DNA from: an uncultured Gemmatimonadales bacterium
GTDB lineage: Bacteria > Gemmatimonadota > Gemmatimonadetes > Gemmatimonadales > GWC2-71-9
Reading direction: 5' to 3'
Assembly (NCBI GenBank): GCA_963828735.1
Contig: CAWHFW010000002.1
Span: 576,001 to 640,000, forward strand
Length of the DNA: 64,000 nucleotides
In this document: one piece after another, positions 8,992-28,845 of the stretch
Layout: each line of letters opens with the position of its first letter
Numbering within the stretch: the stretch's first letter is position 1
The notes under the pieces: generated by a model
Told to the model about the DNA's origin: nothing
The model's database searches: none
What the model saw: the letters and a program-made list of their open reading frames with translations, nothing else
Program-made: the position numbers and the translations under genes

Positions 8992-9007
8992 TGCACCAAG
9001 GTGCAAT
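8992..9007. promoter_or_regulatory. Palindromic operator copy 1 (TGCACCAAGGTGCAAT), between divergent genes
   Basis: Perfect TGCACC-AA-GGTGCA palindrome. -10-like CAGCGT at 9030 (+) and CAAGTT at 8961-8966 (-). Confidence 0.7.
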
Positions 9008-9042
9008 GTCCCCGTATGTCGGTTTCCGGCAGCGTTTATAGG

Positions 9043-10197
9043 ATGCCACCTTTCCGACCCACCTCGGGTCTGGCGGCGGTCTGCCTCCTGCCGCTGGTTG
9101 CGGCTGCCTGCCTCAAGGTGCCGCAACAGTCCGCGTCGTTGACCGCGATCGAAGCCACCGATGTCACCGCGAGCGAGCTCCAGCTGCGCGTCTTCGAGGC
9201 GGGGCGGCGTCTCTCGTCCATCATCGAGGATGCCGCGGATACCATCGCCGCCCGCAGCCCGGATTCCACCATCCGCCGCAACGCCCTTCGCTGGAAGGTG
9301 GCGGCGATCCCGCTGATCCAGGAAGCCTCGCTCCGTCCCGACCCGGTGGTGGCCTTGGCCGACGTCTGGACCTTCACCATGCAGCTATCCGACTACTTGG
9401 AGCGAGGCGACGGGCGGGACGCATTCGGCGACCAGCAGCCGATCGCGATCGCCGCGACCGACACGCTCGAGCGCCTGGCATCGGATCTCGCCGCCCACGT
9501 CGTCGGCACCACCGAGAGCAAGCCCCGAGAGGAGCGGCTCCGCGTCTGGGCGGGGGACCACCCGATTCACGGCCCCGACCTCGCGCGGGAGTCCATTCTC
9601 TCGAGCGACATGAAGGCGCTCTCCCTCGGCGAGACCAGCCTGACCGGCACCGTCGCCAGCCTCCAACGCAACCTCGTGGGCATCAACAACCGGCTCGGCT
9701 ACGTGAACGAGGGAATCTTCAAGCGGGTGGTGTGGCAGGGCGAGTTGGCGGCAGGCGACGTGTTGCCTCCGATCCTCGCCCGTGCCCGGGCGGCCGCCCT
9801 GCAGTATCTCACCGAACAGGAGCGCGGGCTCCTCGGAGCAGTAGACTCGCAGCGGACGGCCGTGTTCGCCGCCCTCGCGGTCGAGCGCGGGACCGTGCTC
9901 GACCGCGTAGCGATGGAGCGAGCGATCGTGCTCGATGCCATCAGGGTAGAGCGGACCGCCACGCTGGCCGGCTTGCGCGACGAACGCGTAGCCGTGCTCC
10001 TCGCCATCGAGGCTGAGCGCCGCGCGGCGCTGGCCAAGATGGACAGCGTCGCTCAGGCATCCATCGACCACGCCGGGGCAGTCGTCGGCCGGCTCCTGCT
10101 CTGGACCGTCCTCGCACTCGTCGGCCTCGCAACCTTCGTCGGGATCGGCGCCGTGTGGATCACCCGCTCATGGAGGCCCGCGGGCGCGCGGGGGTAG
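9043..10197 (+). CDS. Hypothetical lipoprotein with 11-residue coiled-coil repeats and C-terminal TM anchor
   Basis: Lipobox-like VAAAC, about 7 ER-x-x-(V/T/A)-L 11-mers and a C-terminal hydrophobic helix. Confidence 0.75.
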   Translation: MPPFRPTSGLAAVCLLPLVAAACLKVPQQSASLTAIEATDVTASELQLRVFEAGRRLSSIIEDAADTIAARSPDSTIRRNALRWKVAAIPLIQEASLRPDPVVALADVWTFTMQLSDYLERGDGRDAFGDQQPIAIAATDTLERLASDLAAHVVGTTESKPREERLRVWAGDHPIHGPDLARESILSSDMKALSLGETSLTGTVASLQRNLVGINNRLGYVNEGIFKRVVWQGELAAGDVLPPILARARAAALQYLTEQERGLLGAVDSQRTAVFAALAVERGTVLDRVAMERAIVLDAIRVERTATLAGLRDERVAVLLAIEAERRAALAKMDSVAQASIDHAGAVVGRLLLWTVLALVGLATFVGIGAVWITRSWRPAGARG

Positions 10198-10310
10198 GGC
10201 GGCGGTCCCAACGACGAACGACGCCGGGCCGCCATGATATCGGTCGGCGACCGTCAGGAGGCCCTCGACAATGTCGATGCGGTTGGTCGGCGCCGCCGCC
10301 GCCATGGCCG

Positions 10311-10500
10311 TCACGATGATGGGCCCGAGGGATAGTTCAGCTTGAGCTGGCGCTGGATGTTTCCGATACGCTCGCTGGGACGGGAGTGATCGCCGGCGAA
10401 GAAGTTGGAGAGCCTGTCCTCCTCGCCGTACTTGTCCTTGAACTTCTGCCAGAGGCCCGGACCCTTGGTCACGTCGAAGCCGGCCTCGTAGATGCGAGGA
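10311..10500 (-). pseudogene. C-terminal remnant of an M48-family metallopeptidase
   Basis: YEAGFDV..GPGLWQKF...NFFAGDHSRPSERI resembles the M48 tail (AGYDP..W..M...FLSTHP...ERI). No HEXXH-containing N-terminus. Confidence 0.55.
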
Positions 10501-10608
10501 GAGCAGAAACGACAAGTCATCGACGCCCCGGCCTTCCAACCGCGGCTGGAGGCCCTGGCGACCGCGCGTCACGTGTAGCCATATGAGTCCCTCGAACGCT
10601 TCACTGGC

Positions 10609-12974
10609 CTATTCCCGAAGCAGCAGTCCGATCGCCTCGCGCGCCGGATCGCGGTACGGCTCTCCACTCACGTCCACCGTGACCCGGCGGATCGTGCCGC
10701 CGGTAAAGGCCCATGGCCGATACCCAGGATAGTCCGTGGTAACGGCGTCGCCGCCGTCGCGGCCGACGTCGAGGCCCTCGCCTGCGAGCGAGAAGCGGCC
10801 GGGCTGCGTGCGGATGGCCCGCTCGCCGACGACACGGCCGTCGAACTGCAGGCGCAGGACGCCGGCCGCCGCACCCGAGCCCTCCTCGCCCGTCTTCTCG
10901 AAGGCGGCCACGAGCACGGCGTCCCCGAGCGGCACGTCCTCGCTCGATTCGATCAGCTGGTCCTCGATCCCCACGAAGTTGTACACGTACCGGAGCCGGC
11001 GGTCCTTCACGTACAACGCGTGCCCGCCGAACCGGCCACCCATGGCGAAGAGGACGCCCGCCGCCTCCGCCGAGACGATCTCGACATGGGCGGCGACCGT
11101 GTAGGACCGGCCGCGGATGCTCACCGCCGCAGCTTCGGGAACCCCGGAGATGTTAGGGTAGTAGACATACCGCTTGCGGGCTCCGACGAGCGCGGGTCGC
11201 GGCGCCTCGAGAATCTCGGCCATGTTGCGGTCGTCGAGCGGCAGCGCCCCGTAGCGTCCCGCGCAGACGAACCAGAGGTTCTTGAGCTCCTCGAGCTTGG
11301 CCGGGTGCTGGGCCGCCAGATCGAAGCGCTCGGTGCGATCGTCGTCGGTGTTGTAGAGCTCCCACGTGTCGCGCGAAAAGTTGCCCCAGCCGGCGAGCGG
11401 CGGATGGGTGGTCACCGCCTTCCACCCCCTGCTCCAGATGCCGCGCGTCCCGAGCATGGAGTAGAACTGCAGGTCGCGGTGGCCGACGGCATACGCGTCC
11501 TCGAAGGTGTAGGCCAGGCTGATGCCCTCGATCGGCTTCTGCGTGTATCCCCGGACCGTGTCGGGCATGCGGGTGCCCGCGCACTCGAGCAGGGTCGGCA
11601 TCAAGTCGATCGCGTGGCAATACTGGGCTCGAATGCCGCTCCGGTCGGCGATGCCCCGGGGCCAGTACACGACGCAGGGAGCCGCGATCCCTCCCTCGAA
11701 CGAGGCGTACCGCTTCCACATCTTGAACGGGGTGTTGAACCCCATCGCCCAACCGGTACAGAAGTGGTTGTACGTCTCCGGCCCGCCCAGCTTCTCCAGC
11801 ATATCGGTGCGGCCGCGCAAGCGGTCGGGCACGCCATTCATCACGTGGTTGCCGTTCACCACGCCGTCCGGACCCTCCCTCGCCACTGGCTCCATTCCCC
11901 GACACCACGGCGCACGACGGTATTCTCGAGCTCGCCGGCGTCCTCGAGAAAGTCGACCAGCCGCCCGATGTGGTGGTCGGCATGACTCAACATCCCTGCG
12001 TACACCTCGGCCATTCGCGCGAACAGCGCCTGCTCCTCGGGCGAGAGCGAATACCATGGCTTGACCCAGTCCGCCGGCGGGTAGGGTTCGCCGTTCGGAC
12101 CCGAGCGAGTCGCGGGCGTGCCGACCGGATTGAGGGCGGGCAGGCCGACGTCCGGGAGCAGGATGCCCATCGACTTCTGTCGATTGAGGATACCCCGACG
12201 CATCTCCTCGTAGCCCGCGTCGAAATGACCGCGATACCGATCGGACCACTCGCGGGGTACCTGATGCGGCGCGTGGCACGCGCCGGGACAGAAATAGAGA
12301 AAGAAGGGCCGGTGCGGGGCGATGACCTTCGAATCCCGGATGAACTGGAGCGCGGTGTCGGTCAGGTCTTCCGTCAGGTGGTAGCCGGCTTCGGGCCCGC
12401 GAGGTGGCCCGACCGGATGGTTGTCGTGCACCAGCTCCGGGAAATACTGGCTGGTCTCGCCGCCGAGAAACCCGTAGAACCGCTCGAACCCTCGCCCGAG
12501 CGGCCAGCTTCGTTTGCTGGACGCGAGGTTCACCTCGCCCTCGGGGCACAGGTGCCACTTGCCCACCGCGTAGGTATTCCAGCCGTGCGAAACGAGCACC
12601 TCGGCAAGGCTGGCGCACTCGGGGGGGATGTAGCCGCTGGAGGAGGGGAAGCCGCTGGTGGCTTCACCCAGGCCCGCCATGCCGACGGTGGTGTGGTTGC
12701 GGCCCGTCAGCAGGCAGGCACGGGTCGCCGACGACACGCCCGTCGTGTGCCAGTTGGTGTAGCGGAGCCCGTTCCGGGCGAGCCGGTCGATGGCCGGCGT
12801 TTCGACCGGGCCGCCGAAGCACCCGAGCGACCCGAAGCCCACGTCGTCCAGCACGATGAGGACGATGTTGGGCACTCCGTCACGCGCCCGGGGCTGCTCG
12901 TAGGGCCGCCAATCGGGGCGGGAGTCACGGATGTCGAGGGTCGCGTTGCCGCGGAAAGCACGGGTAACTGGCAC
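10609..12974 (-). CDS. Arylsulfatase paralog 1, interrupted by two frameshifts at about 11875-11915, with atypical SxAxR active-site motif
   Basis: N-half (ORF 11856..12974) has PNIVLIVLDDVG, HTTGVSSATRACLLTGRNH and GKWHL. C-half continues in the 10609 frame with GWAMGFNTPFKMWK and WELY. Confidence 0.8.
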
Positions 12975-13126
12975 TGTGGACCCCCCTCAGAGGATCGCGC
13001 ATCCGGGTGGGGCGCAAGACCAGCACGGCGAAGTACGCGCACACCAAGCCGGGACGTCCGGGTGGCCCCCAGGAGGTGAACACCATTGGCTTCAGCGAAG
13101 GTGTCCCCGGAAGTCGAGGGGCGCAC

Positions 13127-13142
13127 AGTGGACCTTCGTGCA
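13127..13142 (-). promoter_or_regulatory. Operator copy 2 (AGTGGACCTTCGTGCA) upstream of sulfatase 1
   Basis: Matches the consensus. -10-like CACCTT (13098-13103, minus strand) lies 23 nt downstream. Confidence 0.65.
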
Positions 13143-13151: not shown

Positions 13152-15530
13152 CTACTGAATCGCCATCGCCAGTCGCATCCGCTCCTCGGGTGCGATCAGA
13201 TGATCGACATCCCGGGCCGCCTTGTTGACGTCGATCTCGACCCAGTTGACCTCGCCCGAGAACTTCCCGCCCGGCGTCTCATTGTCGTTCGTGACGGGTG
13301 AGCCCGACTCGTACCCGATGTCGAGCGTCTCGTCGGCGGAGAAGAGCGCCGGCTCGGTGCGCTCGATGCGGGCGGCGCCGACCGCTTTGCCGTCGACGAA
13401 GAGTGTGGCGGTCCCGCCCTTCGCCAGGCCGCCGCCTTCGTAGGCGAACTCCATCCGCACCTGGTGCGTGCCGGCCGGGATCGGCGTGGAGGCCTCGGCG
13501 TAGTACTGATTCAGGCCGAGGAAGTTGTAGCAGTGTTTCAGCCTCCCGCTCTTCGCGTAGAGCGACCATCCCCCGGTGATCCCGCCCAACGCCACGATGG
13601 TGCCCTCCGCACCGGATTCCGGTACCACAATCTCGGCGGTGATCGCGTAGGACTTGTTGTGGGTGTTGACGACCGAGCTCTCCGTGAGCCGCCCCATGCC
13701 GCCGAACAGGAGCTGGCGGTTCCCTTTGACCAGCTGCGGGCGGCCGGCGACATCGGGGTTCGCGCGCTCGATCATCCGGTCGTCGAGCGGCAGCACCTGG
13801 TACTTGGCTGCCTCGAGCAACCAGAGACGCTGGAGTTCGTGCAGGCGGTCGGGCTGCGCTTTCGCCAGGTCGTGTGCCTGGGTCCAGTCCTTGGTCGTGT
13901 CGTACAGCTCCCAGACGTCGTCGTGGAAAGCCATGGTTTTCACGTAGCCCGTCTGCCACGGAATCCGGTGGCGTGTCACGGCGGTCCAGCCCTTGTGATA
14001 GATGCCGCGATTGCCGAACATCTCGAAGTATTGCGTCTCGTGACGGTCGTGCGCCGTGGCATCGTTGAACGAGTAGGCCATGCTGACGCCCTCGAGGGGC
14101 TTCTGGGCGACGCCGTGCACGAACTGCGGCTCGGGCAGCCCGGCCACCTCGAGGATCGTCGGCGCGACGTCGATCACATGATGGAACTGGCTGCGGATCT
14201 CGTTCCTGGCCTTGATGCCTTTGGGCCAGTGGACGATCGTGCCGTTGCGTGTGCCGCCCCAGTGGGAGGCGACCTGCTTGGTCCACTGATAGGGCGTGCC
14301 CATCGCGTGCGCCCACCCTACCGCGTAATGATTGTAGGCCTCGGGACCTCCGAACTTGTCGAGCCGTGCCGCGAGGAACGCGGGTGTCTCGAGCTGCGGG
14401 AACCCGCCGAGGGTGATCATCTCGTTGAACGTGCCCTGCAGGGAGCCTTCGGCCGACGCGCCGTTGTCGCCGATGATCACGTAGATCAGGGTATCGTCGA
14501 GGACGCCCACGTCCTCGAGCGCGGTGATCACCCGTCCCACATGGTGGTCCGCGTGCTCCAGGAAGCCCGCGTAGATCTCCATCTGCCGCGCGAGCACCGT
14601 CTTCATCGTGGCGCTCACCGTGGTCCAGGCCGGGATTTCGGGATGGCGCGGGGTCAGGTCGCAGTCGGCGGGAATGACGCCCAGCCGCTTCTGGCGCGTG
14701 AAGGTCTCCTCGCGGAGCACGTCCCAGCCGGCGTCGAACTTGCCCTTGTACTTGTCGGACCACTCCTTCGGCACGTGGTGCGGCGCGTGCGTGGCGCCGG
14801 GCGCGAAGTAGACGAAGAACGGCTTGTCGGGCGCGAGGGACTTCTGCTGGCGGATCCACTTGATCGCCCTGTTGGCGAGGTCCTCGGTCAGGTGATAACC
14901 CTCAGCCGGAGTCTTCGCCGGCTCGACCGGAGACGTCCCCTCGAACAGCGCGGGATAGTACTGATTGGTCTCACCGCCGATGAATCCGTAGAAATACTCG
15001 AAACCGCCGCCGCCACTCGGCCACCGCTCGAAAGGGCCGATGGGGCTGGTCTCCCACACCGGGACCTCGTGACACTTGCCGAACTGTGCGGTCGAGTAGC
15101 CGTTGAGCTTGAGGATGTCGGCGATGGGGGCCGCGGTGTTGGGACGCATCGAGTTCTGGCCCGGCGCCGAGGTGGCCAGCTCGGTAATGGAGCCCATGCC
15201 GACGGAGTGGTGATTCCGACCGGTCAACAAGGCCTGGCGCGTCGGCGAGCATAGAGCGGTCGTGTGAAACCGGTTGTACTTGAGCCCGTTGCCGGCCAGC
15301 CTCTCGAACGTCGGCGTTTGGCAGGGGCCACCGAAAGTGCTCGACGCCCCGAACCCCACGTCATCGATGAGGACCACCAGCACGTTGGGTGCGCCCTTCG
15401 GTGGACGCAGAGGCCGGATCGGGTCGAAGCTGGCTTCCTTGTCCTTCGCATCGAACGTGATCACGCCGGAGGCCGGGCGGTCCGGGATCGGGAGAACATC
15501 GCGCGCGATGTTCCCGTTGCGGTCTGGCAT
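13152..15530 (-). CDS. Arylsulfatase paralog 2 (Cys-type, intact)
   Basis: ATG at 15530 with AAGGAG RBS. LIDDVG, HTTALCSPTRQALLTGRNH, GKCHE and GDNG motifs, plus a C-terminal LamG-like beta domain. Confidence 0.92.
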   Translation of the reverse strand: MPDRNGNIARDVLPIPDRPASGVITFDAKDKEASFDPIRPLRPPKGAPNVLVVLIDDVGFGASSTFGGPCQTPTFERLAGNGLKYNRFHTTALCSPTRQALLTGRNHHSVGMGSITELATSAPGQNSMRPNTAAPIADILKLNGYSTAQFGKCHEVPVWETSPIGPFERWPSGGGGFEYFYGFIGGETNQYYPALFEGTSPVEPAKTPAEGYHLTEDLANRAIKWIRQQKSLAPDKPFFVYFAPGATHAPHHVPKEWSDKYKGKFDAGWDVLREETFTRQKRLGVIPADCDLTPRHPEIPAWTTVSATMKTVLARQMEIYAGFLEHADHHVGRVITALEDVGVLDDTLIYVIIGDNGASAEGSLQGTFNEMITLGGFPQLETPAFLAARLDKFGGPEAYNHYAVGWAHAMGTPYQWTKQVASHWGGTRNGTIVHWPKGIKARNEIRSQFHHVIDVAPTILEVAGLPEPQFVHGVAQKPLEGVSMAYSFNDATAHDRHETQYFEMFGNRGIYHKGWTAVTRHRIPWQTGYVKTMAFHDDVWELYDTTKDWTQAHDLAKAQPDRLHELQRLWLLEAAKYQVLPLDDRMIERANPDVAGRPQLVKGNRQLLFGGMGRLTESSVVNTHNKSYAITAEIVVPESGAEGTIVALGGITGGWSLYAKSGRLKHCYNFLGLNQYYAEASTPIPAGTHQVRMEFAYEGGGLAKGGTATLFVDGKAVGAARIERTEPALFSADETLDIGYESGSPVTNDNETPGGKFSGEVNWVEIDVNKAARDVDHLIAPEERMRLAMAIQ

Positions 15531-15687: not shown

Positions 15688-15703
15688 AGTACACCTTGGT
15701 ACA
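15688..15703 (-). promoter_or_regulatory. Operator copy 3 (AGTACACCTTGGTACA) upstream of sulfatase 2
   Basis: Matches the consensus. -10-like CAACTT (15659-15664, minus strand) lies 23 nt downstream. Confidence 0.65.
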
Positions 15704-15836: not shown

Positions 15837-16409
15837 TCACCGGTGTGCGAGACGCTGCGCGAACCCGCGGGCCTTGAACGCCAGCATGACCATGAGAATG
15901 CCGAAGGCGAAAGCGTACGCGCCGATCAGCCACAGCACCGTGAGGGCACCTGCGCCGGGCCGCGCCATGAGAAGAACGCCGAACGCGACCGAGGCCAATC
16001 CGCCAAGAATGAGCAGCCACTCCCCTTCGATCTCCTTGCGGAGGCGGATCGCGGCCGCGATCCCGAGCACACCCCGGGCGATGGCCCAGATGGCGATGTA
16101 GTAGAGGAGCGCGAGAGCCGTGAGCCCCGGGGCGGCCAGGGTCAGGATGCCGACGCCGACGCCCAGCAGTCCTCCGAGCAGCAACACCCACCACTGCTCC
16201 TGATCCTTGCGTCCGGCAAGCGCGGTCCACACATCGAGGACCCCGTCCGCCAGCGAGTACAGGCCAAAGAGCAGGACCAGGGAGGCGAGCGAGATGCCGG
16301 GGCGCAACCACGTCAGAAGGCCGAACGCGATGGCCGCGAGGCCACGCAGAAGCAGACGCCACCAACCCCGAGTGAGAATGGTCGCGAAGCGTTCCCCCAC
16401 GCCGTTCAT
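15837..16409 (-). CDS. HdeD/DUF308 family acid-resistance membrane protein
   Basis: WWRLLLRGLAAIAFG...LFGLYSLADG...WAIARG...GEWLLIL pattern with 6 TM helices. Confidence 0.85.
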   Translation of the reverse strand: MNGVGERFATILTRGWWRLLLRGLAAIAFGLLTWLRPGISLASLVLLFGLYSLADGVLDVWTALAGRKDQEQWWVLLLGGLLGVGVGILTLAAPGLTALALLYYIAIWAIARGVLGIAAAIRLRKEIEGEWLLILGGLASVAFGVLLMARPGAGALTVLWLIGAYAFAFGILMVMLAFKARGFAQRLAHR

Positions 16410-16512: not shown

Positions 16513-17076
16513 TCAGAACAGACCGCTTACCAAGCTGCTGACTTCCGGTCCTCCGACCTGCCCGAGGTACTTGGTGACCTCCGGAACGAACTTGGAAGCC
16601 GTCTCCGGCGGGATGCCCAGCTTGCCGAGGGCCGCGTTCAGACCCGCGACATCCGTGATGGAGCCCGTATCGACACCGGCGGCCTTGGCCGCGTCGAGGC
16701 TCGCGGTGCCTCCCCCTGGAAGCGATCCCGCGACCTTTTGATAATCGCTGGCGGGCAGCTTGTTCTGGGCGTAGGCCAGGACGGCCCCGGTTCCTGCGGT
16801 GGCCTGCGCGGGCGTCACGCCGAGGTCCGACGTCAGCGACGCCGGCAGCTCCCCGGCAGGCATGGCGGGCGCCGCCGCAGCTGCTGCGCTATCGGCCGAT
16901 GGTACCGCAGCCGTCGCCGCGGCAGCGCTATCGGCCGACGGGGCAGCCGGGGCCTCGCTCGTCACCGCACCGGCGCTATCGGCCGGCGCCGCCCCCGTCT
17001 CCGGAGTTGACTTGCTGCAGCCCGCGAGGGTCGCGGCCGCAAGCAAGGTGAACGTCAGCAGTGTATTCCGCAACAT
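16513..17076 (-). CDS. Lipoprotein with Ala-rich linker and DUF2780-like C-terminal domain
   Basis: ATG at 17076 with GAGGAG RBS. Lipobox LAGC and LGVTPAQATAGTGAVLAYAQNKL motif. Confidence 0.75.
   Translation of the reverse strand: MLRNTLLTFTLLAAATLAGCSKSTPETGAAPADSAGAVTSEAPAAPSADSAAAATAAVPSADSAAAAAAPAMPAGELPASLTSDLGVTPAQATAGTGAVLAYAQNKLPASDYQKVAGSLPGGGTASLDAAKAAGVDTGSITDVAGLNAALGKLGIPPETASKFVPEVTKYLGQVGGPEVSSLVSGLF
16886..16985. repeat. Three copies of GCGCTATCGGCCG encoding ADSA
   Basis: Copies at 16886, 16925 and 16973. Confidence 0.8.
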
Positions 17077-17120: not shown

Positions 17121-17136
17121 AGTAGATCCTGGTGCA
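17121..17136 (-). promoter_or_regulatory. Operator copy 4 (AGTAGATCCTGGTGCA) upstream of the DUF2780-like gene
   Basis: More degenerate match, with the same GCAC 5' flank as copy 2. A partial second site lies at 17141-17156. No clean -10. Confidence 0.5.
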
Positions 17137-17247: not shown

Positions 17248-17760
17248 TCACTGCGACGTCGTGTCACCGACCATCGGCATGTTCGCTTGCAGGTTCGCGC
17301 TGATCACCGCGTCGAGCGCGTTCTCGATCTGGTAGAGGCGAGCCACCTTCACCGCTGGCAGGACCTTCTTGAACTTGCCGATGTACTTCTTCTGGAGATC
17401 GAGATGGCCCTGGCGAATCTTGAACCAGTTGGTCAGCAGGTCTTCCGCCTCCTTGTCCGTCATCTTGTCCGAGGTCTTGACGTAGTTCTCGATCAGCTCG
17501 ACCCGCTTATCGCCGATCTTGGCGACCTCGGCCTGGTACTCCCGGTAGACCGGCCAGAAGTTTTCGCTCTCCTGGGGCGTGAACTCCATGAGCTGCTGCA
17601 GGATGTCCCGGCGCTTGTTCTGCACGTCGGCCCGGGTCAGCTCAATCTCATCGTGCGCGTTTTTGACCTGGCCGGACTCCGTCTGGGCCCTGCAGGGGGC
17701 CGCGGCGGCAACCAGGCCCCAGGCCAGAACGGCCAGCCCGGCGGTTCGAGTGTATTCCAT
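17248..17760 (-). CDS. Secreted all-helical protein (Spy/CpxP-like)
   Basis: ATG at 17760 with GAGGAG RBS. Signal peptide and FTPQESENFWPVYREY...FKKVLPAVKVARLYQIE motif. Confidence 0.7.
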   Translation of the reverse strand: MEYTRTAGLAVLAWGLVAAAAPCRAQTESGQVKNAHDEIELTRADVQNKRRDILQQLMEFTPQESENFWPVYREYQAEVAKIGDKRVELIENYVKTSDKMTDKEAEDLLTNWFKIRQGHLDLQKKYIGKFKKVLPAVKVARLYQIENALDAVISANLQANMPMVGDTTSQ

Positions 17761-17813: not shown

Positions 17814-17829
17814 ATTGGACCTTCGTGCA
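17814..17829 (-). promoter_or_regulatory. Operator copy 5 (ATTGGACCTTCGTGCA)
   Basis: 14-nt core identical to copy 2. -10 TATTCT (17786-17791, minus strand) lies 22 nt downstream. Confidence 0.75.
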
Positions 17830-18815: not shown

Positions 18816-19216
18816 CGGTCCATCTCCCCTACCGCCTCGATGGCGGCGAGGAGCGAGCGGTCCTCGAAGGGCTTGCGCAGGCAGATCACCGCCTCGGACC
18901 GAAGCCGGACCGCCGTCACCTTGGCGTCATCATGGGCGGTGATGAATACGGTCGGAGGCGCGTGGCCGCGGGTGCACAGCTTCGCGTAGAGGTCGATGCC
19001 GTTCATTCCGCCGAGGTACACGTCGAGCACGAGGCAATCCAGCTCATCCGGGGGATTCGTGCTCAGAAACTCCTCGGCGGAGGGATAGGTGCGAACCTCG
19101 AACCCTGTCGCCCGCAGCAGTCGGCCGAGCGCTCCGCGCACGCCCTGATCGTCGTCGACGACGACAATCCGGGTCGGCGCACGATCCGTGGGCGTACGCT
19201 GGAGACTCGCGGTCAT
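18812..19216 (-). CDS. Stand-alone response regulator receiver (FixJ-associated type)
   Basis: VVDDD, LDVYLGGMNG, FITAH and LRKPF motifs. No output domain. Confidence 0.88.
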   Translation of the reverse strand: MTASLQRTPTDRAPTRIVVVDDDQGVRGALGRLLRATGFEVRTYPSAEEFLSTNPPDELDCLVLDVYLGGMNGIDLYAKLCTRGHAPPTVFITAHDDAKVTAVRLRSEAVICLRKPFEDRSLLAAIEAVGEMDR

Positions 19217-19271: not shown

Positions 19272-19287
19272 ATTGGCTCTTGGTATA
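19272..19287 (-). promoter_or_regulatory. Operator copy 6 (ATTGGCTCTTGGTATA) upstream of receiver-cobW
   Basis: Degenerate match. -10-like GATTCT (19244-19249, minus strand) lies 22 nt downstream. Confidence 0.55.
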
Positions 19288-19318: not shown

Positions 19319-20047
19319 TTATCCCTGCCGGTCGGGACCGGGTTCGGGGCTCCCCTCAGCGCCGCCTCGCCACCCAAGGCGTTCGGCGAGGTGGACCAGC
19401 TGAGCGAGGGAGGCGGCCTCCATCTTTTGCATGACCCGGCCGCGGTGCACCTTGACGGTCTGCTCGGTGGTTCCCAGGCGGCCGGCGATCTGTTTGTTCA
19501 ACAACCCTTGGACGACCAGTGCGAAGACCTCCCGCTCGCGGGGCGTGAGCATCGACAGGCGCTCAGCCACCTGGCGGTGGTCTTCCAGCGCCTGGCGCCG
19601 CATCCGGTCCCGCTCCAGGGCCTGCTCCACGGCCCGGAGCAGGTCATCGTCGTCCACGGGCTTCGTCAGGAAGTCCACCGCGCCCGACTTCATCGCTTTC
19701 ACGCCGGTCGCCACGTCCCCATAGCCCGTGATGAAGATGATCGGGATCTTGCAGCCCGACATCCGCAGCATCGCGAACAGGTCGAGTCCATCGACCTCGG
19801 GGAGCCGCAGGTCGCTCACCAGCACCGCGGGCCCGTGCTCGTTGTGCTTGTCGAGGAATTCGCGCGACGACGCGAAGAGCTCCACCTGATACCCGGCGGT
19901 TCTGAGCAGCCGCCCCAACGCCTTGCGCACATTTGGATCGTCGTCCAGCACGAATACGAAGGGCTGGTCGGCAGCCTGCGGGTCCCCGCTCTCGGTCGAG
20001 CGGGCCCGCGCCTCGGACGGCGGTTCGGACGTGGGACGCGGCTTCAC
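19319..20047 (-). CDS. FixJ/NodW/TtrR-type response regulator (REC + LuxR HTH); start uncertain
   Basis: [30 protein letters not shown] and [25 protein letters not shown]...[13 protein letters not shown]. Confidence 0.92.
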
Positions 20048-20553: not shown

Positions 20554-20569
20554 CCGACCAAAGTCCAGT
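20554..20569 (+). promoter_or_regulatory. Operator copy 7 (CCGACCAAAGTCCAGT) upstream of tamB
   Basis: Matches the consensus in + orientation. -10 TAAGCT at 20593-20598, 23 nt downstream. Confidence 0.6.
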
Positions 20570-20612: not shown

Positions 20613-23600
20613 GTGCCGCCTGGCGCCGCGCGGCCGTGTTTTCGTCTGCCGAACCGGCGTCGAAGGACCGTCACCCTGGCCCGCACCCTGCTTCGCGTGC
20701 TCCTCCGCCTGCTGACGATCGGGGCACTCGTCGTCCTCGGGTTCATCGTGGCCCTGTATCTCGGTGGGGCCACGTGGATCGTCAACCGTGTGCTCCAGCG
20801 AGTTGATCCCTTCCCCGATACGTCCCTGCAGACCGCCCGCGTATCCGGAAATCTCCTCACCGAGCTCACCCTTCATGACGTGCGCCTGATCCGCGCGGAT
20901 TCGCAGCCGGCCTGGCGGCTCGACAGCGTCCGGGCGGCCTACGACCCACGCCAGCTGTTCGGAAACGAGATCGTCATCCGGGAGGGGATGGTCTTCGGGC
21001 CGGACGTCGTGCTTCAGCAGCTCACCAACTCGAAGTGGGACTTGCCCCGCCCTCGACCCAAGCGCGCCGGCGCCGGCCCGTCCAAGGGGCCCCGTATCAC
21101 GATCGAACGCCTTGCGGTGTCCGGCGGCAGGGCGGCAGTGCGGTTCAGCGGCTCACGGGCGGGACGGGTGGCGCACCTCGACAGCGTCAACGCCCTGGCG
21201 GCCGACATCCGGATCGCGAACGGCGTTCGGATTTCGCGGGCAATGATCCGGCTTCGGGCGCGCAACGAGCAGGGCACCCCCGAGCGGGCAACAATCGTGG
21301 CGAAGGGGTCGGTAGAGCCGGACCTGATCACCATCGCGGATCTGTCCGTTCATTCGCCGGGCAGCACGATCTCCGCTCACGGAGCGATACCACTGCGGCG
21401 CGGGAAGGGGCAAACCCGTGGCCCGGGCCGACTCGAGGCGCATGTCGTAGCGCAACCGCTTCAATTTCGTGACCTGAGCCTGCTGGATGCGAGATTCGAA
21501 CGTGCCGGAAGCGTCGGCCTCACATTCGATCTCGGCGGTGAGCGCGATGGGTTCATGCTTCGGGCGAAGGCCGGGTTCTCGGACGGTGGTACCGCACACG
21601 CGGAGGGATACCTCACGGCGCGTGGCGTGACCCCCGTGGAATATCGCGGAAGCGCGATGCTCCGTTCCGTCGACCCCAGCCTGTTTACGCTGGGACCCAC
21701 CCGTTCGGAACGGGTGAATGGCGACCTCGAAGTCGACTTGCACGGATCGCGTGCCGACCTCATGAACGGACGAGCCGCGCTTCAGGTGTATGACTCCCGC
21801 TACGGCCCGATCCGAGCAACCCGCGCACAGGCGAAAGCGACCTTCACCGAGGGTCGCGCCCGGCTCGCCGCGGAGACCGAATGGAAGCCGTTCGCGATGG
21901 CGTTGAACGGGTGGTTGCGACCATTCGATACGGTGCCGACCTACGACCTGACGGCCCGGCTCGGCCGCCTGCCCGGAGACACATCGTCCGTGTGGCTCGA
22001 GCGCCTGCTTGGGAGCGGCACCGCCCGGGTCGCCGTCAACGTGAAGGGACGAGGCGCCGGTCCCCGGACGGCGGACCTCAGCGTGGTCGCCTCTCTCGAG
22101 CGCGGGACTGGACCGCGAGGGCTCCTCGACTCGGTCTCCCTGCAGGCTCGGCTCATGAGCGGCTCGGCTGAGGTGCGTGGACGACTGGGGGCCACGGGGG
22201 GCCTGGTTGCCTTTCGCGGGCAGGCAGTGCTTGGAGACGCCCTGCAATACCGGGTCGAGCGAGCGACCATCGACCACGTGCGTCTGTCTGCCCTGGCCGG
22301 CGACACGACGGCGAGCTCGCTCGACGCCACCTTCTCGCTCCGCGGCACGGGTACGAGCGCCGATTCCGCCGAGGCGCACGCCGAGGTTCAGGTCGCCCGG
22401 ATGTCATATGGCCGGCACGAGCTCGCCGGCGGCCGGCTCGACTTGGGCCTCAGGCAGGGCACCACGCGGGTTGTCGCCCGCGGCACCATGGACGGTGCCG
22501 CGGTGGACGTCGATGCGTCGGCGCGGCCGTTCGCGGCCGAGCCTGTGGTCATGGTCGACCACCTCCGTTTCCGTCATGTCGATCTGGCGCGAGTGGCGCC
22601 TGGAGCAGGCCTCTCGAGCGACCTGTCCGGGATGGCTCGTGTGCGGGTCCGGGGCCGACGTTCCGAGGCGCTGCACGTCGAAGGGGGCATGACGCTGGAG
22701 CCCTCGCGCCTCGGCGCGGACACGCTGGAGGAGGGCACGATCGAGGCCTCGCTCGACCGGGGCGATCTGACCGTCCGCACCCGGCTCCTCTGGCCCGCGG
22801 GGCGACTCACCCTGGCTGGGACCGCACGGCCGTTCGATTCCCTTCCCACGTACTCCGTTCGCGAGGGCGCCTTCCAAGGTCTCGACCTGGGCAAGCTCCT
22901 CCGGCGGCCCTCGCTGCGTACCGCTCTCTCGGGCTCGTTGCGCCTCGAGGGCAGGGGTCGCGAGGCGAAGAGCGCGAGGCTCGACGGCACCATCACCGTC
23001 GACTCGTCGATCGTCAACCGCACGGTCATTCGCGGAGGCCGGCTTCAGCTTGCCCTCACGGATGGACGGGCTCGGATCGTCGGTGGGCTACGCGGTGACG
23101 GCGACAGCATCACGATTGATGGCACCGCGGAGCCGTTTGCCACGCCACGCCGGGTACACCTCACGAGCCAGATCGCGATCGCCGACCTCGCCGCTCTGCT
23201 CGGGCGCGACACGATCGATGCGGGCGGTGCGGCACGAATCGTCGTAGAGGGGGAGCTGGGCCGTCCGGAGGCGACGCGACTTCGCGGCACCATACGGGGC
23301 AACGGCCACTTCGCCGGCATCTCCGTGGACTCGCTGCGGGCCGACGGCCGACTCGCGGCGGGACTGCTGGACCTCGATACCCTGGCGATCAGGTCCAACG
23401 TCGCACATCTGACCGGCGGTGGTCGGGTCGCGCTGTACGGGCCGGACGCCACCGCACGATCGGCCTTCCGCCTCGGCGGGAGCCTCCGGGATCTCGCGCC
23501 GCTCGGACCCGTCCTGGGGATCGAGGGACTCGCCGTCGATTCGGGTCGCGTCGACCTTCGCCTCGATGGCCCCAAGGCCCGCACCCATCTCGAAGCCGAC

Positions 23601-25757
23601 CTGCAGGCGACCCACCTCGCCCTTGGCCCTCGGCGAGCCCGGGCGGTGCACGCGTCGCTCGACGGGAGCCTCGCGGCCGATCGGTCGATCGCCGCGGGAA
23701 CCGGCAGCATCGTGATGGAGAATGTCACGGTGCCCGGCCGACGCATCGGGCGCTTGCGTGTCGACGGCTCGTATGGCGCTCAGCAGCTGGCCGTTCGCGG
23801 GCACGTGGAGCTGGACCGCTTGCGCACCCTGACGCTGGCGGCGCGCGCCTACCCGGCCACCGCGGAGCGGAGGGTGGAGCTCGATACGCTCGTGGTAAGG
23901 GGCGACAAGCAGACCTGGGCGCTCCGCCATCCGGTGCGCATGACCTACGGGCAGCGCATGGCGATTCAGGATTTCGCCCTGGTCTCCGGCGGACGCAGGA
24001 TCGGGATCGACGGCATCGTCGACCGCCGCGGTGAGCAGCGGATGACGGTGGCGATCGATTCGCTCCCCGTCGCCTGGCTGAGCGAGCTGCTCGGCAGCGG
24101 CACGACGGACGGAGAGATCAACGGCAGGCTGGATCTCACGGGCCCCGCCACGGCCCCGAAGTTGGCGGGCACGCTGGCGGTCGGCCTCACGTCGCGCGGC
24201 AAGAAGGTCGGCACGGCCCGCGCGGGCCTGGAGTGGATCGGCGCGCGAGGGCTGCGTCTCGACGTGGGCGTCTATCACCCCGATGGCGACAGTCTTCGCG
24301 TCACCGGCCGGGTTCCGCTCGCGCTCTCGCTTGCCTCCGACGATTCGAGCCGCGGCGTGGTGAGCCGGATTCCAGCCGGCGAGCTGACGATGGATGCCGT
24401 GGCCAATGGATTCCGGATCGACATGCTCCAGCCTCTGCTCGATCCGAAAACCGCCAAGTCGCTTCGTGGCCGGCTCACCGTGGACGCTCACGCCCGAGGA
24501 AGCCTGGAATCACCCGTCCTGTCCGGCAGCGTCGAGCTCACCGAGGCGAGGATCGAGATCCCTCGCCTTGGCGCGACCTACGACAACGGTCACATGCGGG
24601 CCACCCTCGAGGGTCGGAACGTTCGGCTGAACGAGGCGCGGTTCGAGGCCGGCGGGGGGCGCTTGGACGGCAAGGGCGTGATCAGTGTCCAGGAGGCCCA
24701 GCGCATCGGGCTCGACCTCGACGCCACCATGGAGGACTTCCGGCTCGCCGACGGCGACAACCTCGGCGCGACCACGTCGGGCAGGGTCCACCTCGGCGGC
24801 ACTCCCAAGGCGCCGTCGCTCGAGGGGGCCGTGAAGGTTCGGAACCTCGACTACTACCTCCAGGCAAAGAGTCTCGGCCAGTCGGCTGAGGCAGTCGAGC
24901 TCACGGCGGAAGACCTACGCATCCTTGAGGACCGATTCGGCGTCACGGCCGATCAGTCCGTCCGCGGGGCCCCATCGCCCTGGGCGATGAACCTCGACCT
25001 GACACTGTCCGGGAACGACTGGCTCCGGCGTCGGACCAGCCCGGTCGTTGCCGTCGAGCTGTCCGGCAACCTCCAGATCCGGAAGGCTGCGGGGGAGGAC
25101 ATGCAGATCTTCGGCGCGATTCAGCCGCTCGCGGGCCGGAGCTTCGTGGAGCTTCTCGGGCGCCGGTTCCAGGTCACGAGCGGCCAGGTCGGGTTGAACG
25201 GGCCAATGAAGAACGCCCGCCTCAACCTGCTCGCCGAATATCGTGCCGACTCGGGCAGCAGCAGCACGTCTCCCTCGGGAGTCGTGATTACGACGCAGCT
25301 CAAGGCGGATACCGGGCAGCTGGCGGTCACGCTGGACTCGCGTCCCAAGCTGAGTAACGCGGACATCCGCTCCTATCTAGCAACGGGACGCCCCGCGGGG
25401 ACGGATCCGACGCGTGCCAACGACGAAACGAATCCGCTGACCGCTGGGGCGTCGCTGGCGGTGGGCGCCGCGCTCGGCACGGTCGCCGGCGGAGCCGGGC
25501 GCGCGCTCGGATTCGACGTCGTGCAGATTCTCCAGGATCGGAACGGCGGGCAGACCCTCGTCGCCGGCAAGTACGTTTCGCCCCCCTTATACCTCGGATT
25601 TCGGGAACCGATCGTCGCGGCGGAGGATCCTTCCGAGCCGCAATCGTCGAGGGGGAGCATGGAGTGGGAAGTCGAATATGCCGCGCTCCGACGCGCACTG
25701 CTCAATCTCCAGGGTTCCGGCGAGGAATTCCGCGCCTTCCTGCGGCTCCGGCGGTGA
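20613..25757 (+). CDS. tamB: TamB/AsmA-like bridge protein (start uncertain)
   Basis: N-terminal TM anchor, about 1700 aa of beta-rich repeats and a C-terminal DUF490-like region (LVAGKYVSPPLYLG). GTGA-coupled to an Omp85 gene. Confidence 0.82.
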   Translation: MPPGAARPCFRLPNRRRRTVTLARTLLRVLLRLLTIGALVVLGFIVALYLGGATWIVNRVLQRVDPFPDTSLQTARVSGNLLTELTLHDVRLIRADSQPAWRLDSVRAAYDPRQLFGNEIVIREGMVFGPDVVLQQLTNSKWDLPRPRPKRAGAGPSKGPRITIERLAVSGGRAAVRFSGSRAGRVAHLDSVNALAADIRIANGVRISRAMIRLRARNEQGTPERATIVAKGSVEPDLITIADLSVHSPGSTISAHGAIPLRRGKGQTRGPGRLEAHVVAQPLQFRDLSLLDARFERAGSVGLTFDLGGERDGFMLRAKAGFSDGGTAHAEGYLTARGVTPVEYRGSAMLRSVDPSLFTLGPTRSERVNGDLEVDLHGSRADLMNGRAALQVYDSRYGPIRATRAQAKATFTEGRARLAAETEWKPFAMALNGWLRPFDTVPTYDLTARLGRLPGDTSSVWLERLLGSGTARVAVNVKGRGAGPRTADLSVVASLERGTGPRGLLDSVSLQARLMSGSAEVRGRLGATGGLVAFRGQAVLGDALQYRVERATIDHVRLSALAGDTTASSLDATFSLRGTGTSADSAEAHAEVQVARMSYGRHELAGGRLDLGLRQGTTRVVARGTMDGAAVDVDASARPFAAEPVVMVDHLRFRHVDLARVAPGAGLSSDLSGMARVRVRGRRSEALHVEGGMTLEPSRLGADTLEEGTIEASLDRGDLTVRTRLLWPAGRLTLAGTARPFDSLPTYSVREGAFQGLDLGKLLRRPSLRTALSGSLRLEGRGREAKSARLDGTITVDSSIVNRTVIRGGRLQLALTDGRARIVGGLRGDGDSITIDGTAEPFATPRRVHLTSQIAIADLAALLGRDTIDAGGAARIVVEGELGRPEATRLRGTIRGNGHFAGISVDSLRADGRLAAGLLDLDTLAIRSNVAHLTGGGRVALYGPDATARSAFRLGGSLRDLAPLGPVLGIEGLAVDSGRVDLRLDGPKARTHLEADLQATHLALGPRRARAVHASLDGSLAADRSIAAGTGSIVMENVTVPGRRIGRLRVDGSYGAQQLAVRGHVELDRLRTLTLAARAYPATAERRVELDTLVVRGDKQTWALRHPVRMTYGQRMAIQDFALVSGGRRIGIDGIVDRRGEQRMTVAIDSLPVAWLSELLGSGTTDGEINGRLDLTGPATAPKLAGTLAVGLTSRGKKVGTARAGLEWIGARGLRLDVGVYHPDGDSLRVTGRVPLALSLASDDSSRGVVSRIPAGELTMDAVANGFRIDMLQPLLDPKTAKSLRGRLTVDAHARGSLESPVLSGSVELTEARIEIPRLGATYDNGHMRATLEGRNVRLNEARFEAGGGRLDGKGVISVQEAQRIGLDLDATMEDFRLADGDNLGATTSGRVHLGGTPKAPSLEGAVKVRNLDYYLQAKSLGQSAEAVELTAEDLRILEDRFGVTADQSVRGAPSPWAMNLDLTLSGNDWLRRRTSPVVAVELSGNLQIRKAAGEDMQIFGAIQPLAGRSFVELLGRRFQVTSGQVGLNGPMKNARLNLLAEYRADSGSSSTSPSGVVITTQLKADTGQLAVTLDSRPKLSNADIRSYLATGRPAGTDPTRANDETNPLTAGASLAVGAALGTVAGGAGRALGFDVVQILQDRNGGQTLVAGKYVSPPLYLGFREPIVAAEDPSEPQSSRGSMEWEVEYAALRRALLNLQGSGEEFRAFLRLRR

Positions 25758-27916
25758 CCCGCGGGCGCGCGTTGGCGCTGGCCCTCCTGATGCTCAGTGC
25801 CACGCTGCGGGTGGCAGCGGCACAGGATTCTCTCCTCGCCATTCGTCCGGATGCTCAGGTCGAGTCCGTCGACTTCCGCTTCGCAGGCACCCGGAGCTTC
25901 TCCTCCGTCGAGCTCGGTGAGCAGCTTGCGGTCAAGGGCCGCGGCTCGCTCTATGACGTCCGGCGTCTGCTCGGCAAACTCCCACTGATCCCCACGCCGG
26001 GCACGTTCACCTTCGATCCCGTCGAGCTCCAGAAGGACGTGGTCCGGCTCCGCCGGTTCTACCAGCGGGCCGGCTTCTTCGAGCCGCAACTGGACTACGA
26101 GGTCCGGACCAACGACGCGGGCACGCTGGTGAAGGTGGTCTTCCTCATCGACGAGGGAGCGGCGACTCCGCTCCGAAGCGTGCGGGTCGTGAGCTCGGAC
26201 GGAGATTCGGCCCTTTCCCTGCCCGACTCGCTTCGGGAGAGCTGGGCGGAGTTCGAGCGCGAGCTCACTGCCGGCCGCGGCCGGCGCCTCGGGGAGACCG
26301 ATCTCGTCGCCGTCGAAAATCGAACGCTCGAATGGCTCCGCCAGCGCGGTTATCCCTTCGCCACCGTGCGTTCAACGCGGACGGTGGATTCGCTCGCGAA
26401 AGCGGTCGACGTGGTCCTGACGGCGGATCCGGGCCCCCGGAGCCGGATCGGACGAATTGCCGTCGAGGGCAACGCGTCGGTAAGCGATCGGGTGGTGACG
26501 CGGGTGCTGCCCTTTCAGACCGGCGACTGGTATTCCTCGGACGAGCTCGCAATCGCCCGGAAGCGGCTCCAGACCGTGGATTTGCTGTCAGACGCCGTAG
26601 TGGACGTCGACTCGCAACCGGCCCCCGACTCGACCCTCGCCGTTCGCATCCGGGTACACGAGACCCGTCCCAGCCTGACCCTCGCCGAGGTGGGCTACAT
26701 CTCCGAGGGTGCCGGCCTCACGGGCCGGGTGCAGTGGACGCATCCCAACTTCACCGGCGGCGCGCGCAGCCTGACAGCCTCGCTCGAGGGGCAGACGGGC
26801 GCCGGGGCGATCGGGACCGAGGCCGAGCAGCTCCTCCGCGGCTCGCTCAGCCTCACGCAGCCCTTTGTGTTCGATCCCCGATTCTCCCTGATCTTCGGCC
26901 CCTGGGCGGAGTACCGGAACGACCTGAAGGATCGTTCCGGCGCAATCGGCCTCACAGCGACCCTGGTGCGCCGATTTCTTCCCCTCTCCTCCATCGCGCT
27001 GCAGTACCAGTTCAGCGCCCGTCATATCGACGAGTACCACTTTGGCGACGTCTCGGCCGGCGACGTCAGCTTGGGCGAGCTGCTGTCGCTTCAATTCCCC
27101 CACCTGATCGACTCGCTCGGACGTGACCAGAACAAGAGCACGATCACGCTGTCCGGCACGTTCAGCAACGTGGACGATCTGGGCGATCCCCGCCGGGGCT
27201 GGGTGGTCCGGCCGGCGGCCGAGATCACGGTGCCCGCAGTGCTCAGCACGGTCGAGTTTGGTCGGCTCGACCTCTCCGTGACCCGCTTTCAGCCAATCGC
27301 GCGGAACGTCGTGCTGATGGCGCGCTTCTCGGCCGGGCGGCTCTTCCCGTACGGCAAGAGCGCGCCCGCCCCCGGCGAGGATCCGACCTTCGATTTCATT
27401 CGCCTGAGAGACGAGTCGATGACGGCGGGGGGGACGAACGACGTCCGGGGATGGGGCGACCGGATGCTGGGCCCCAAGGTGCCCGACGTGGAAGGACACA
27501 TCGAGGGCTCGGACACCGTGTTCGTCGCCGACCACTACGCACCCGTGGGGGCGCTGGCTAGGCTCAGCGGCTCGGTCGAGCTACGGTTTCCGGCTCCAGG
27601 TCTGACGCCGGCCTGGCGAACCAGCGTGTTCGTCGATGGTGGGAGAGTATGGACGCCCGACGAGCGGTTCTCGCAGGCACGCCTCCTCCCGGAGAACACC
27701 GAATTCCGTTTCTCGATCGGTGCGGGGATCAGCTACCAGACGCCCATTGGTGCGCTGGGGCTCAGCGTGGGATACAAGCTGAACCCGTCCGCGGTGGACG
27801 TGCGCGACCCAGGCAAGGTGCTGGACGCGCTGATCGCCGGCTTGCCGGTGACGAGCGTCGAGTCCGAGTCGATCCGGCGCTATCACCTGCACCTGTCGTT
27901 CGGCGTGGCGCTGTAG
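25754..27916 (+). CDS. TamA/BamA-family Omp85 protein with POTRA domains
   Basis: Signal peptide, POTRA motifs (FYQRAGFF, LRQRGYPFA), AGGTNDVRGW lid loop and terminal beta strand. Confidence 0.85.
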   Translation: MTRGRALALALLMLSATLRVAAAQDSLLAIRPDAQVESVDFRFAGTRSFSSVELGEQLAVKGRGSLYDVRRLLGKLPLIPTPGTFTFDPVELQKDVVRLRRFYQRAGFFEPQLDYEVRTNDAGTLVKVVFLIDEGAATPLRSVRVVSSDGDSALSLPDSLRESWAEFERELTAGRGRRLGETDLVAVENRTLEWLRQRGYPFATVRSTRTVDSLAKAVDVVLTADPGPRSRIGRIAVEGNASVSDRVVTRVLPFQTGDWYSSDELAIARKRLQTVDLLSDAVVDVDSQPAPDSTLAVRIRVHETRPSLTLAEVGYISEGAGLTGRVQWTHPNFTGGARSLTASLEGQTGAGAIGTEAEQLLRGSLSLTQPFVFDPRFSLIFGPWAEYRNDLKDRSGAIGLTATLVRRFLPLSSIALQYQFSARHIDEYHFGDVSAGDVSLGELLSLQFPHLIDSLGRDQNKSTITLSGTFSNVDDLGDPRRGWVVRPAAEITVPAVLSTVEFGRLDLSVTRFQPIARNVVLMARFSAGRLFPYGKSAPAPGEDPTFDFIRLRDESMTAGGTNDVRGWGDRMLGPKVPDVEGHIEGSDTVFVADHYAPVGALARLSGSVELRFPAPGLTPAWRTSVFVDGGRVWTPDERFSQARLLPENTEFRFSIGAGISYQTPIGALGLSVGYKLNPSAVDVRDPGKVLDALIAGLPVTSVESESIRRYHLHLSFGVAL

Positions 27917-27919
27917 GCG

Positions 27920-28708
27920 TCAGTTGACGGTGTAGCCGCGGCCCTGGAGGCAGGTCGCCATCGCCTTGCTGAACTTGTCCATCGTAGCGGAAGCCTGAGC
28001 GGTTGCCTGCTGCTGCCCCTGCTGTTCGGCCTGCGCGTCGGCCTGCTTCTTGGACTTTCGTCCGCGAGCGCCCCCGGCAACGGCGCCGACGGCGGCCCCT
28101 GTGCCGGCGTCACCCACAATGGCGCCCACGACGGCGCCGCCGGCTGCCCCCCTTGCAGCGCCGGAAACGGCTGCTCCAGAGGTGGCGGAATCCGATTGTG
28201 CCTTCGCGGCCTTGCCCGCGGAATCGGCGTTCACGCTCACCTTCGTGGGATCGATCCCGGTCTGCTCCTTCGCCCATTGGTAGCAGGCTCCTTCGTCCTG
28301 CACCTGCTGGGCCTGGGACTGCCCCTTCGCCGCGTACACGGTGAGGCCGACCTGCGCAGCCAGCTTGGGATCGACCACCTCGGCTGCCGGCGCGGGCGCC
28401 GGCGCGGCGGCAACTGCGGGCGCCGCGGCCGGAGCAGACGGCTCGGCGGCGGGCTTCGGGGCAGCCTTCTTGGGCTCCTGCTTCCCAGTGGCGGGCGGTG
28501 CCGCGGACGGCTGGGCGGCCACCGATTCAGCCGGCTGCACCGACACCGTCGGCCCGGCGGGCGCCGATGTCGCCGCCGCGGTCTCCGGCGTTGATGTCTT
28601 GGTCGCGGCGGTCTCATCGGCCCTGTTCGCCCTGCCCTTGCAGGCGGATGCGGCCGCCAGGCCGGCCACCACGGCCAGGGTCAGAACGGAACGTCCGGAG
28701 ATTTGCAT
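27920..28708 (-). CDS. Glycine-zipper (YMGG-like) lipoprotein with Ala/Pro-rich linker
   Basis: Lipobox ASAC, YAAKGQSQAQQVQDEGACYQWA, GAARGAAGGAVVGAIVG zipper and CLQGRGYTVN end. Confidence 0.8.
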   Translation of the reverse strand: MQISGRSVLTLAVVAGLAAASACKGRANRADETAATKTSTPETAAATSAPAGPTVSVQPAESVAAQPSAAPPATGKQEPKKAAPKPAAEPSAPAAAPAVAAAPAPAPAAEVVDPKLAAQVGLTVYAAKGQSQAQQVQDEGACYQWAKEQTGIDPTKVSVNADSAGKAAKAQSDSATSGAAVSGAARGAAGGAVVGAIVGDAGTGAAVGAVAGGARGRKSKKQADAQAEQQGQQQATAQASATMDKFSKAMATCLQGRGYTVN

Positions 28709-28806
28709 GATGCCAACCTCATCTCTGCACAGATTCGACTGGGTGGACCACCCGGGCGCACCGGCCCGGGGCCCTTGTAGGGTAGGCCACGTCGCGCGCA
28801 TCCGAC

Positions 28807-28822
28807 ACTGCACTTCCGTCCA
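28807..28822 (-). promoter_or_regulatory. Operator copy 8 (ACTGCACTTCCGTCCA) for the glycine-zipper gene
   Basis: Degenerate match. -10 TACCCT (28779-28784, minus strand) lies 22 nt downstream. Confidence 0.55.
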
Positions 28823-28829
28823 GTGCTCC

Positions 28830-28845
28830 TCCACCAAGGTCCAAT
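28830..28845 (+). promoter_or_regulatory. Operator copy 9 (TCCACCAAGGTCCAAT) for the barrel-only Omp85
   Basis: Close match. -10 TAGCGT at 28868-28873, 22 nt downstream. Confidence 0.72.

Follow-up and report, generated by a model that had tools for sequence, protein, structure and literature searches.

The closest described parallels to the system examined here are helix-turn-helix (HTH) regulators with short palindromic sites. For StyR and TodT, the available part of PMC5874301 gives the consensus ATAAACN4GTTTAT, and StyR activates from a site near -40 while also repressing through other sites (PMC2442086, available part). NarL activates yeaR from -43.5, with the C-terminal domain of the RNA polymerase alpha subunit (alpha-CTD) in the central minor groove (PMC10853779, in excerpt), and EL222 has the consensus RGNCYWWRGNCY (PMC10521638, in excerpt). 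The DNA studied here is a 64,000-nucleotide stretch of an uncultured Gemmatimonadales bacterium (the window; GenBank assembly GCA_963828735.1, contig CAWHFW010000002.1, positions 576,001 to 640,000, written C2:576001-640000 in coordinates of the source genome, G000), in which a palindromic box recurs between genes. This box is very probably the binding site of a phosphorylated, dimeric response regulator of the StyR/NodW type that would activate about 39 promoters. The motif, its spacing, its conservation and its co-occurrence with such regulators support this reading, and from them we infer binding, activation, contact with the alpha-CTD and feedback.

The box and its promoter geometry

The preliminary description reported nine copies of an intergenic 16-mer within 20 kb of the window, and a sequence check confirms all nine at their positions, each between called genes. 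They are, however, the right-hand end of a larger island: 23 sites (at least 15 bits) extend over 62 kb between C2:542,976 and C2:604,830, 14 of them left of the window. A matrix built from the nine sites gives 42 matches of at least 17 bits in the 4.78 Mb genome, 33 of them outside the window, and the predicted excess over background is borne out, with 27 of these 33 in the 15% of DNA called intergenic (binomial p 3e-17). Eleven of the 33 fall within the 36 kb left of the window, where 0.25 is expected. Twenty column-shuffled matrices produced 0-22 matches at 17 bits and 0-2 at 20 bits, the exact pattern occurs 24 times (control, 2), and a stricter pattern 20 times (control, 0). In the reverse direction, a matrix from the 27 outside sites only recovers all nine window sites at 12.6-25.8 bits, with only two other window positions reaching 9 bits. 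The final matrix, trained on all 36 sites, finds 39 intergenic sites of at least 16 bits genome-wide, 36 of which face a co-oriented gene; all 33 matches of at least 19 bits are intergenic, and, apart from the 23 island sites, five more lie at C5:2.52-2.56 Mb.

The consensus is T-V-B-A-C-S-A-A-R-G-T-B-Y-A-V-T, degenerate at positions 2, 3 and 12. The centre, first given as WW, is instead a strand-oriented AA, present when the centre is left free in 21/23 sites of G000, 86/100 in relatives and 19/26 in other lineages. The A-N-T tail described on the gene-facing side exists as letters, but its A is the last base of the dyad and its T the first base of the -35 hexamer; in other phyla the tail is half of an 18-bp dyad. 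One 25.8-bit copy with a -10, at C2:561566 (L003:5566), has no called gene ahead of it and may mark a small protein or RNA.

Eight of the nine window sites are followed at 22-23 nt by an AnnnT -10-like hexamer, as first noted (the site at 17121 lacks one), and among the 27 held-out sites this hexamer stands at +22 nt in 18 and at +23 in 3, compared with 0-2 at 20 other offsets. The spacing puts the centre of the 14-bp dyad at -43.5 (or -44.5) from a predicted +1, in agreement with the proposed activator geometry near -43, and by arithmetic the last T of the box becomes position -35, the first base of the -35 hexamer. A dyad centred 43.5-44.5 nt before the probable +1 and abutting the -35 is the NarL/FixJ-family arrangement, indicated here by the -10 spacing and by a start-codon peak: ATG-started frames begin 33-37 nt after the box at 9/34 sites in other lineages (1.49 expected per 5-nt bin) and at 13/114 in relatives (4.48 expected), a bin picked after inspecting the data, though promoter geometry predicts it. 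At the leftmost window site, the predicted +1 near 9042 adjoins the ATG at 9043, and the mRNA of that gene is predicted to be leaderless.

In the mechanism proposed, a phosphorylated StyR/NodW-type dimer (receiver plus LuxR HTH) would bind the box at -43.5 (or -44.5), against a weak sigma-70 promoter whose -35 begins with the last T of the box and whose -10 is AnnnT. Binding would activate the roughly 39 promoters, which serve outer-membrane and exported proteins, TamAB, sulfatases and the enzyme that matures them, aspartate and basic-amino-acid decarboxylase-antiporter genes, aquaporin, SulP and PPK2. Stand-alone receivers, also putatively activated, would probably feed back on the kinase. 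The alpha-CTD would touch the oriented AA centre and, by analogy with NarL, this contact is a plausible reason for the orientation.

Candidate regulators and rival explanations

G000 encodes two regulators of this type, both in the island: RR-A, in the window at 19319..20047 (minus strand; receiver plus LuxR HTH, helix E-Q-T-V-K-V-H-R-G), and RR-B at C2:545599-546294, 30 kb left of the window (helix class E-G-T; 48% identical to RR-A). Co-occurrence and likeness of the box support a FixJ/NodW/StyR-type LuxR-HTH response regulator as candidate reader, as first proposed, but the choice of RR-A gives way to RR-B, which tracks multi-copy sites better across the genus. Among 103 genus genomes, 39 have a regulator match and 18 carry at least three strict sites. 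An E-G-T regulator occurs in 22 genomes (one gene frameshifted in assembly), 16 of which have at least three strict sites, versus 2 of the 81 genomes without one (G225 and G286), and a skeleton box with a -10 comes after each of the 21 intact E-G-T genes. The class forms one clade (support 98), and in genomes that have it alone the regulator adjoins a MASE1-type kinase like HK-A of the window. At positions not used for selection, 14/16 island sites best match the E-G-T-only logo and two, including 20554, the Lys-class logo; the genomes behind the E-G-T-only logo are kin and the comparison is not independent. Judged on these sequence comparisons, RR-B alone has about an even chance of being the main reader, and RR-B acting together with RR-A a smaller, still substantial one; the boxes may be common to both regulators. 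Some relatives carry a third regulator, NarL-like, close to the module; it was set aside as reader, with no orthologue in G000 (best 39%). A weak box ending AAG at C2:543610 (L002:7610), also found in G260, G257 and G240, faces the HK-B/RR-B operon, where positive autoregulation is possible.

That RR-A alone reads all boxes is improbable. All eight genus genomes with an RR-A orthologue carry 4-20 strict sites, G225 has four with RR-A as the sole regulator found, and G074 encodes one E-Q-T regulator and, about 3 kb from it, has a 25.8-bit site. However, RR-B is present too in seven of those eight, five genomes that are 94-99% complete (G080, G019, G230, G268, G169) have 3-9 strict sites with RR-A not found, and the box immediately downstream of RR-A either deviates or is missing, unlike that after the intact E-G-T genes. 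The strand-oriented centre and fixed spacing to the -10 would also suit a promoter of an alternative sigma factor with no operator at all, a very unlikely reading: the box is an 18-bp dyad in other phyla, adjoins the regulator gene, varies with regulator helix class and matches known LuxR-HTH boxes, while the spacer is an ordinary 17-nt sigma-70 one and the C5:478347 site has TTGACA at the -35 place.

Equally improbable is a repressor site, of RR-A/RR-B or of another factor. The box touches the -35 hexamer, and StyR also represses, through other sites (PMC2442086, available part), but no copy of the box is placed between -35 and +1, the -35 resembles the poor ones of activator-dependent promoters, and the third regulator just mentioned is missing from G000. 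Least probable of all are chance, a repeat element or coding look-alikes, which the held-out tests refute for G000. A loose pattern does match 6-15 times in genomes of family f7 where no regulator was found, yet all 12 examined lie in long open frames, mostly in a repeated YTFV peptide, and none has a -10, for which reason they were rejected as true boxes; the G000 sites share no flanking sequence.

Several observations weigh against a StyR/NodW-type activator box read mainly by RR-B. G225 (84% complete) has its four sites with RR-A as sole regulator found, G286 (85% complete) has three with no regulator found, and six E-G-T genomes have just 0-2 strict sites. The genus genomes are kin with orthologous sites common to them, and p values are therefore overstated. 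Intergenic status, including the 15% share, comes from our own gene caller, and in G000 itself the start-codon peak is not clear (2/23 sites, 0.8 expected). The full StyR/TodT box (partly available source) occurs in 0/36 G000 sites, whose outer bases differ, and the EL222 consensus, likewise from an excerpt, in just four of the 36 in full, with 21 right halves. Lastly, among GTDB regulator loci (the best 80 of at least 600 matches), 51 have no match to the matrix.

Putative targets in the window and beyond

The Pfam comparison covered 60 of the 231 open reading frames listed for the window and 94 proteins, most of them close to outside sites, and the NCBIfam comparison 32 proteins; operon membership is taken from gene order. 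Boxes precede OmpA-FGE-CobW-aquaporin, DUF202, both receivers, FadL-like and several beta-barrel proteins, DUF308-glyoxalase, MarC, DUF3302-HlyD-OEP-SulP-PPK2, porin-AspT-decarboxylase-racemase-AspT-AspD, both sulfatases, TamAB and Omp85. Elsewhere in the genome they stand before AI-2E, a bestrophin-like protein, a transglycosylase-associated protein and a weak Spy-like match. The signal could be acid or envelope stress, a guess to which we give slightly less than an even chance, because envelope building and proton-consuming decarboxylation are among the targets, a reading by analogy with E. coli biology.

Conservation upstream of homologues, proposed as a test of the motif, holds for part of the window set: sites precede 3/3 sulfatase homologues, 6/7 scorable homologues of the 170-aa exported protein and 2/2 of TamB, but 4/13 of Omp85 (the four closest) and 2/10 of the Gly-zipper lipoprotein (both with the same gene order). 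The leftmost box (8992..9007, plus strand; 24.9 bits held-out; -10 CAGCGT at 9030-9035) precedes a predicted 384-aa lipoprotein with no family match (9043..10197, plus). The divergent DUF502-like gene (8289..8909, minus; E 1.8e-4, under the cut-off) had been counted as a target, but no site faces it; the relatives' DNA examined holds no homologues of either gene. Both sulfatases, named as targets, do follow boxes. Sulfatase 1 (13152..15530, minus; Cys-type CSPTR motif) lies behind the box at 15688..15703 (minus; 23.2 bits; -10 CAACTT at 23 nt), and sulfatase 2 (10609..12974, minus; Ser-type SSATR motif) behind that at 13127..13142 (minus; 22.9 bits; -10 CACCTT at 23 nt), although the latter gene is split by a frameshift into 11856-12974 and 10609-11862. 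Since rpoB is spread over two frames at 43665-48168, the assembly has indel errors, and the frameshift near 11860 may likewise be one.

A DUF308 membrane protein (15837..16409, minus) has no box of its own. The site at 17121..17136 (minus; 12.6 bits) before the exported DUF2780 protein (16513..17076, minus) is weak or decayed; it lacks a -10, and no counterpart was found upstream of either of two DUF2780 homologues. The 170-aa exported protein (17248..17760, minus), a member of the conserved module, follows a box (17814..17829, minus; 24.3 bits; -10 TATTCT). Next come a CobW-family GTPase (17844..18815, minus) that overlaps the stop of the stand-alone receiver REC-A (18812..19216, minus), the most conserved target type, and a deviant box with an AAGAG centre (19272..19287, minus; 20.1 bits; -10 GATTCT) between REC-A and RR-A, itself a candidate co-regulator. 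The receiver-CobW pair proposed as a target has a box with a -10, a deviant one that is not in all relatives: the same form occurs in G260, G257 and G240 and is absent in G218, G243, G225 and G282.

The box at 20554..20569 (plus; 20.6 bits; -10 TAAGCT at 23 nt) precedes tamB-tamA (20613..27916, plus; tamB start uncertain). Further right, boxes at 28807..28822 (minus; 14.4 bits; -10 TACCCT), before the Gly-zipper lipoprotein (27920..28708, minus), and at 28830..28845 (plus; 25.8 bits; -10 TAGCGT), before a barrel-only Omp85 (28846..30231, plus; start uncertain), stand back to back 7 nt apart with divergent promoters. The relatives G283, G268, G264, G169 and G260 have comparable close pairs at other genes. 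HK-A (30228..33053, minus), a histidine kinase with MASE1 and PAS domains, is the likely sensor. At its left edge (1..6534, plus) the window takes in the end of the porin-AspT-decarboxylase-racemase-AspT-AspD run; the box of this run is at C2:571851, 4,150 nt before the window starts. Within the run (1855-6534), a racemase-like gene stands between genes for two AspT antiporters, an Orn/Lys/Arg decarboxylase and an aspartate 4-decarboxylase. Two short tandem look-alike open reading frames lie at 6589-7590, and a short one at 33234-33524 resembles a truncated extracytoplasmic function (ECF) sigma factor.

Other phyla and described systems

Of the best 80 GTDB loci, 29 together contain 60 matches, compared with 9.5 from permuted matrices (maximum 27); without the Gemmatimonadales locus L088 the count is 52 matches in 28 loci. 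The closest regulator locus among the matches listed (73%) is titled Gemmatimonadales. AnnnT stands at +22 in 36 of these matches, and 17 follow the regulator on the same strand at a distance of at most 400 nt, mostly ahead of a stand-alone receiver gene. The box, which in other lineages has the form ATTGGACC-AA-GGTCCAAT, is found next to related regulators of at least eight phyla, with lineages assigned by record titles: Gemmatimonadota, Acidobacteriota, Methylomirabilota/Rokubacteria, Desulfobacterota and other deltaproteobacteria, Binatia, Verrucomicrobia, metagenome-assembled genomes titled Bacillota, and alpha- and betaproteobacteria. Three of the five plasmid or proteobacterial regions examined (L169-L171, with Ile-class regulators) have no G000-type box. 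On the symbiotic plasmid pSYMBR3459 of P. phenoliruptrix (L172, 17248-27034), four Lys-class boxes lie near genes for a cation:proton antiporter, a TrkA-C protein and DUF3300/DUF2950 proteins. In S. meliloti 1021, pSymA carries a kinase, regulator, box and receiver, with a sulfatase and a HAD gene nearby; the regulator lies at about 950.9-951.5 kb of NC_003037. The record is unannotated, and we presume this regulator to be SMa1686. For SMa1686, the available part of PMC4560400 gives no role beyond RirA control.

The box also varies with the residue that follows Glu in the helix. When positions 1-3, 12 and 13 are excluded from the box score, 63/120 regulators have a box above the shuffle threshold; CC stands at positions 12-13 in 24/30 boxes after Lys/Arg/Gln regulators versus 2/26 after hydrophobic residues (13 of which have AT), and C at position 12 in 25/27 with Lys/Arg versus 2/26. 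StyR has Val there, with an A/T-rich box, and EL222 has Lys. The base contacts of DosR are Lys179, Lys182 and Asn183 (PMC4082495, available part), and by spacing Lys179 would fall on the covarying residue. Proven co-evolution was rejected for now, the tree giving 1-2 independent pairs, and the residue-box code is put forward as a hypothesis. In eight relatives (G120, G136, G214, G253, G264, G270, G274, G281), Ile-class regulators are followed by a conserved box TATAC[CG]AA[CT]GTATAAT with a -10, which may represent a second regulon. More doubtful is the joint claim of an undescribed cross-phylum module (kinase, StyR-like regulator, box and feedback receiver), apparently unstudied on pSymA, that would run a shared envelope/acid-stress regulon under a one-residue code, in which Lys/Arg selects GG..CC, Ile/Val selects AT..AT and Gly relaxes both, letting a Gemmatimonadales clade build a 40-promoter regulon.

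The regulon is real and well supported, of a kind and mechanism already familiar, and apparently undescribed. Searches by motif string or gene set, covering openly accessible article texts, found no description of box or regulon, and the available parts of PMC3224230, PMC10454721, PMC12124856, PMC5069765 and PMC11387232 do not mention the box. What the present analysis adds is the size of the set across the genome, a second regulator and a possible code. For a soil phylum whose regulation is little known, it defines a concrete regulon with its box, its promoter geometry, about 39 targets and candidate regulators. It also brings many unnamed envelope proteins together with TamAB, sulfatases and decarboxylase-antiporters, and offers a likely binding site, testable in S. 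meliloti, for a large orphan group of NodW-like regulators.

Among described systems, StyR is the nearest characterised relative, with the same receiver and LuxR HTH, and the closest solved relative of RR-A (1yio, E 1e-52). The T..AC-N4-GT..A skeleton of the partly available StyR/TodT consensus is present in 26/36 G000 sites, and StyS/StyR (STY2 box) and TodS/TodT of Pseudomonas have an activating site near -40 in the source parts available, near the dyad placement here. Of the StyR recognition residues Lys175, Val176 and His179, the last is Gly in RR-A (K-V-H-R-G) and RR-B (K-M-H-R-G). Among the G000 proteins compared with Pfam there is no TodS-type hybrid kinase with an aromatic catabolic operon; the kinases are MASE1-PAS or GAF-PAS proteins with no receiver match, and the putative targets are some 39 envelope promoters versus one catabolic operon. 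FixL/FixJ is the best NCBIfam family for both regulators and both kinases, but the scores stay below the equivalog cut-offs (204.3 and 154.4 bits against 255 for FixJ, NF006900; 332 and 193 against 850 for the FixL kinase). EL222 of Erythrobacter litoralis has the HTH closest to RR-B (E 3e-13; helix E-K-T-V-K-M-H-R), and its consensus, as given in the excerpt, is matched by 32 of the 52 other-lineage matches in the best 80 loci; it is, however, a light sensor with a LOV domain, whereas the G000 regulators carry a receiver. NarL at yeaR in E. coli offers the same geometry, a LuxR-HTH dimer at -43.5 (-44.5 at ogt) with a weak -35 and the alpha-CTD in the central A/T minor groove (PMC10853779, in excerpt), but its box differs in sequence, G000 has no nitrate kinase, and the alpha-CTD contact is only presumed here. 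DosR/DevR of mycobacteria, although not among the solved-structure matches and with other targets and box flanks, likewise governs an island-plus-genome regulon under a NarL-family regulator.

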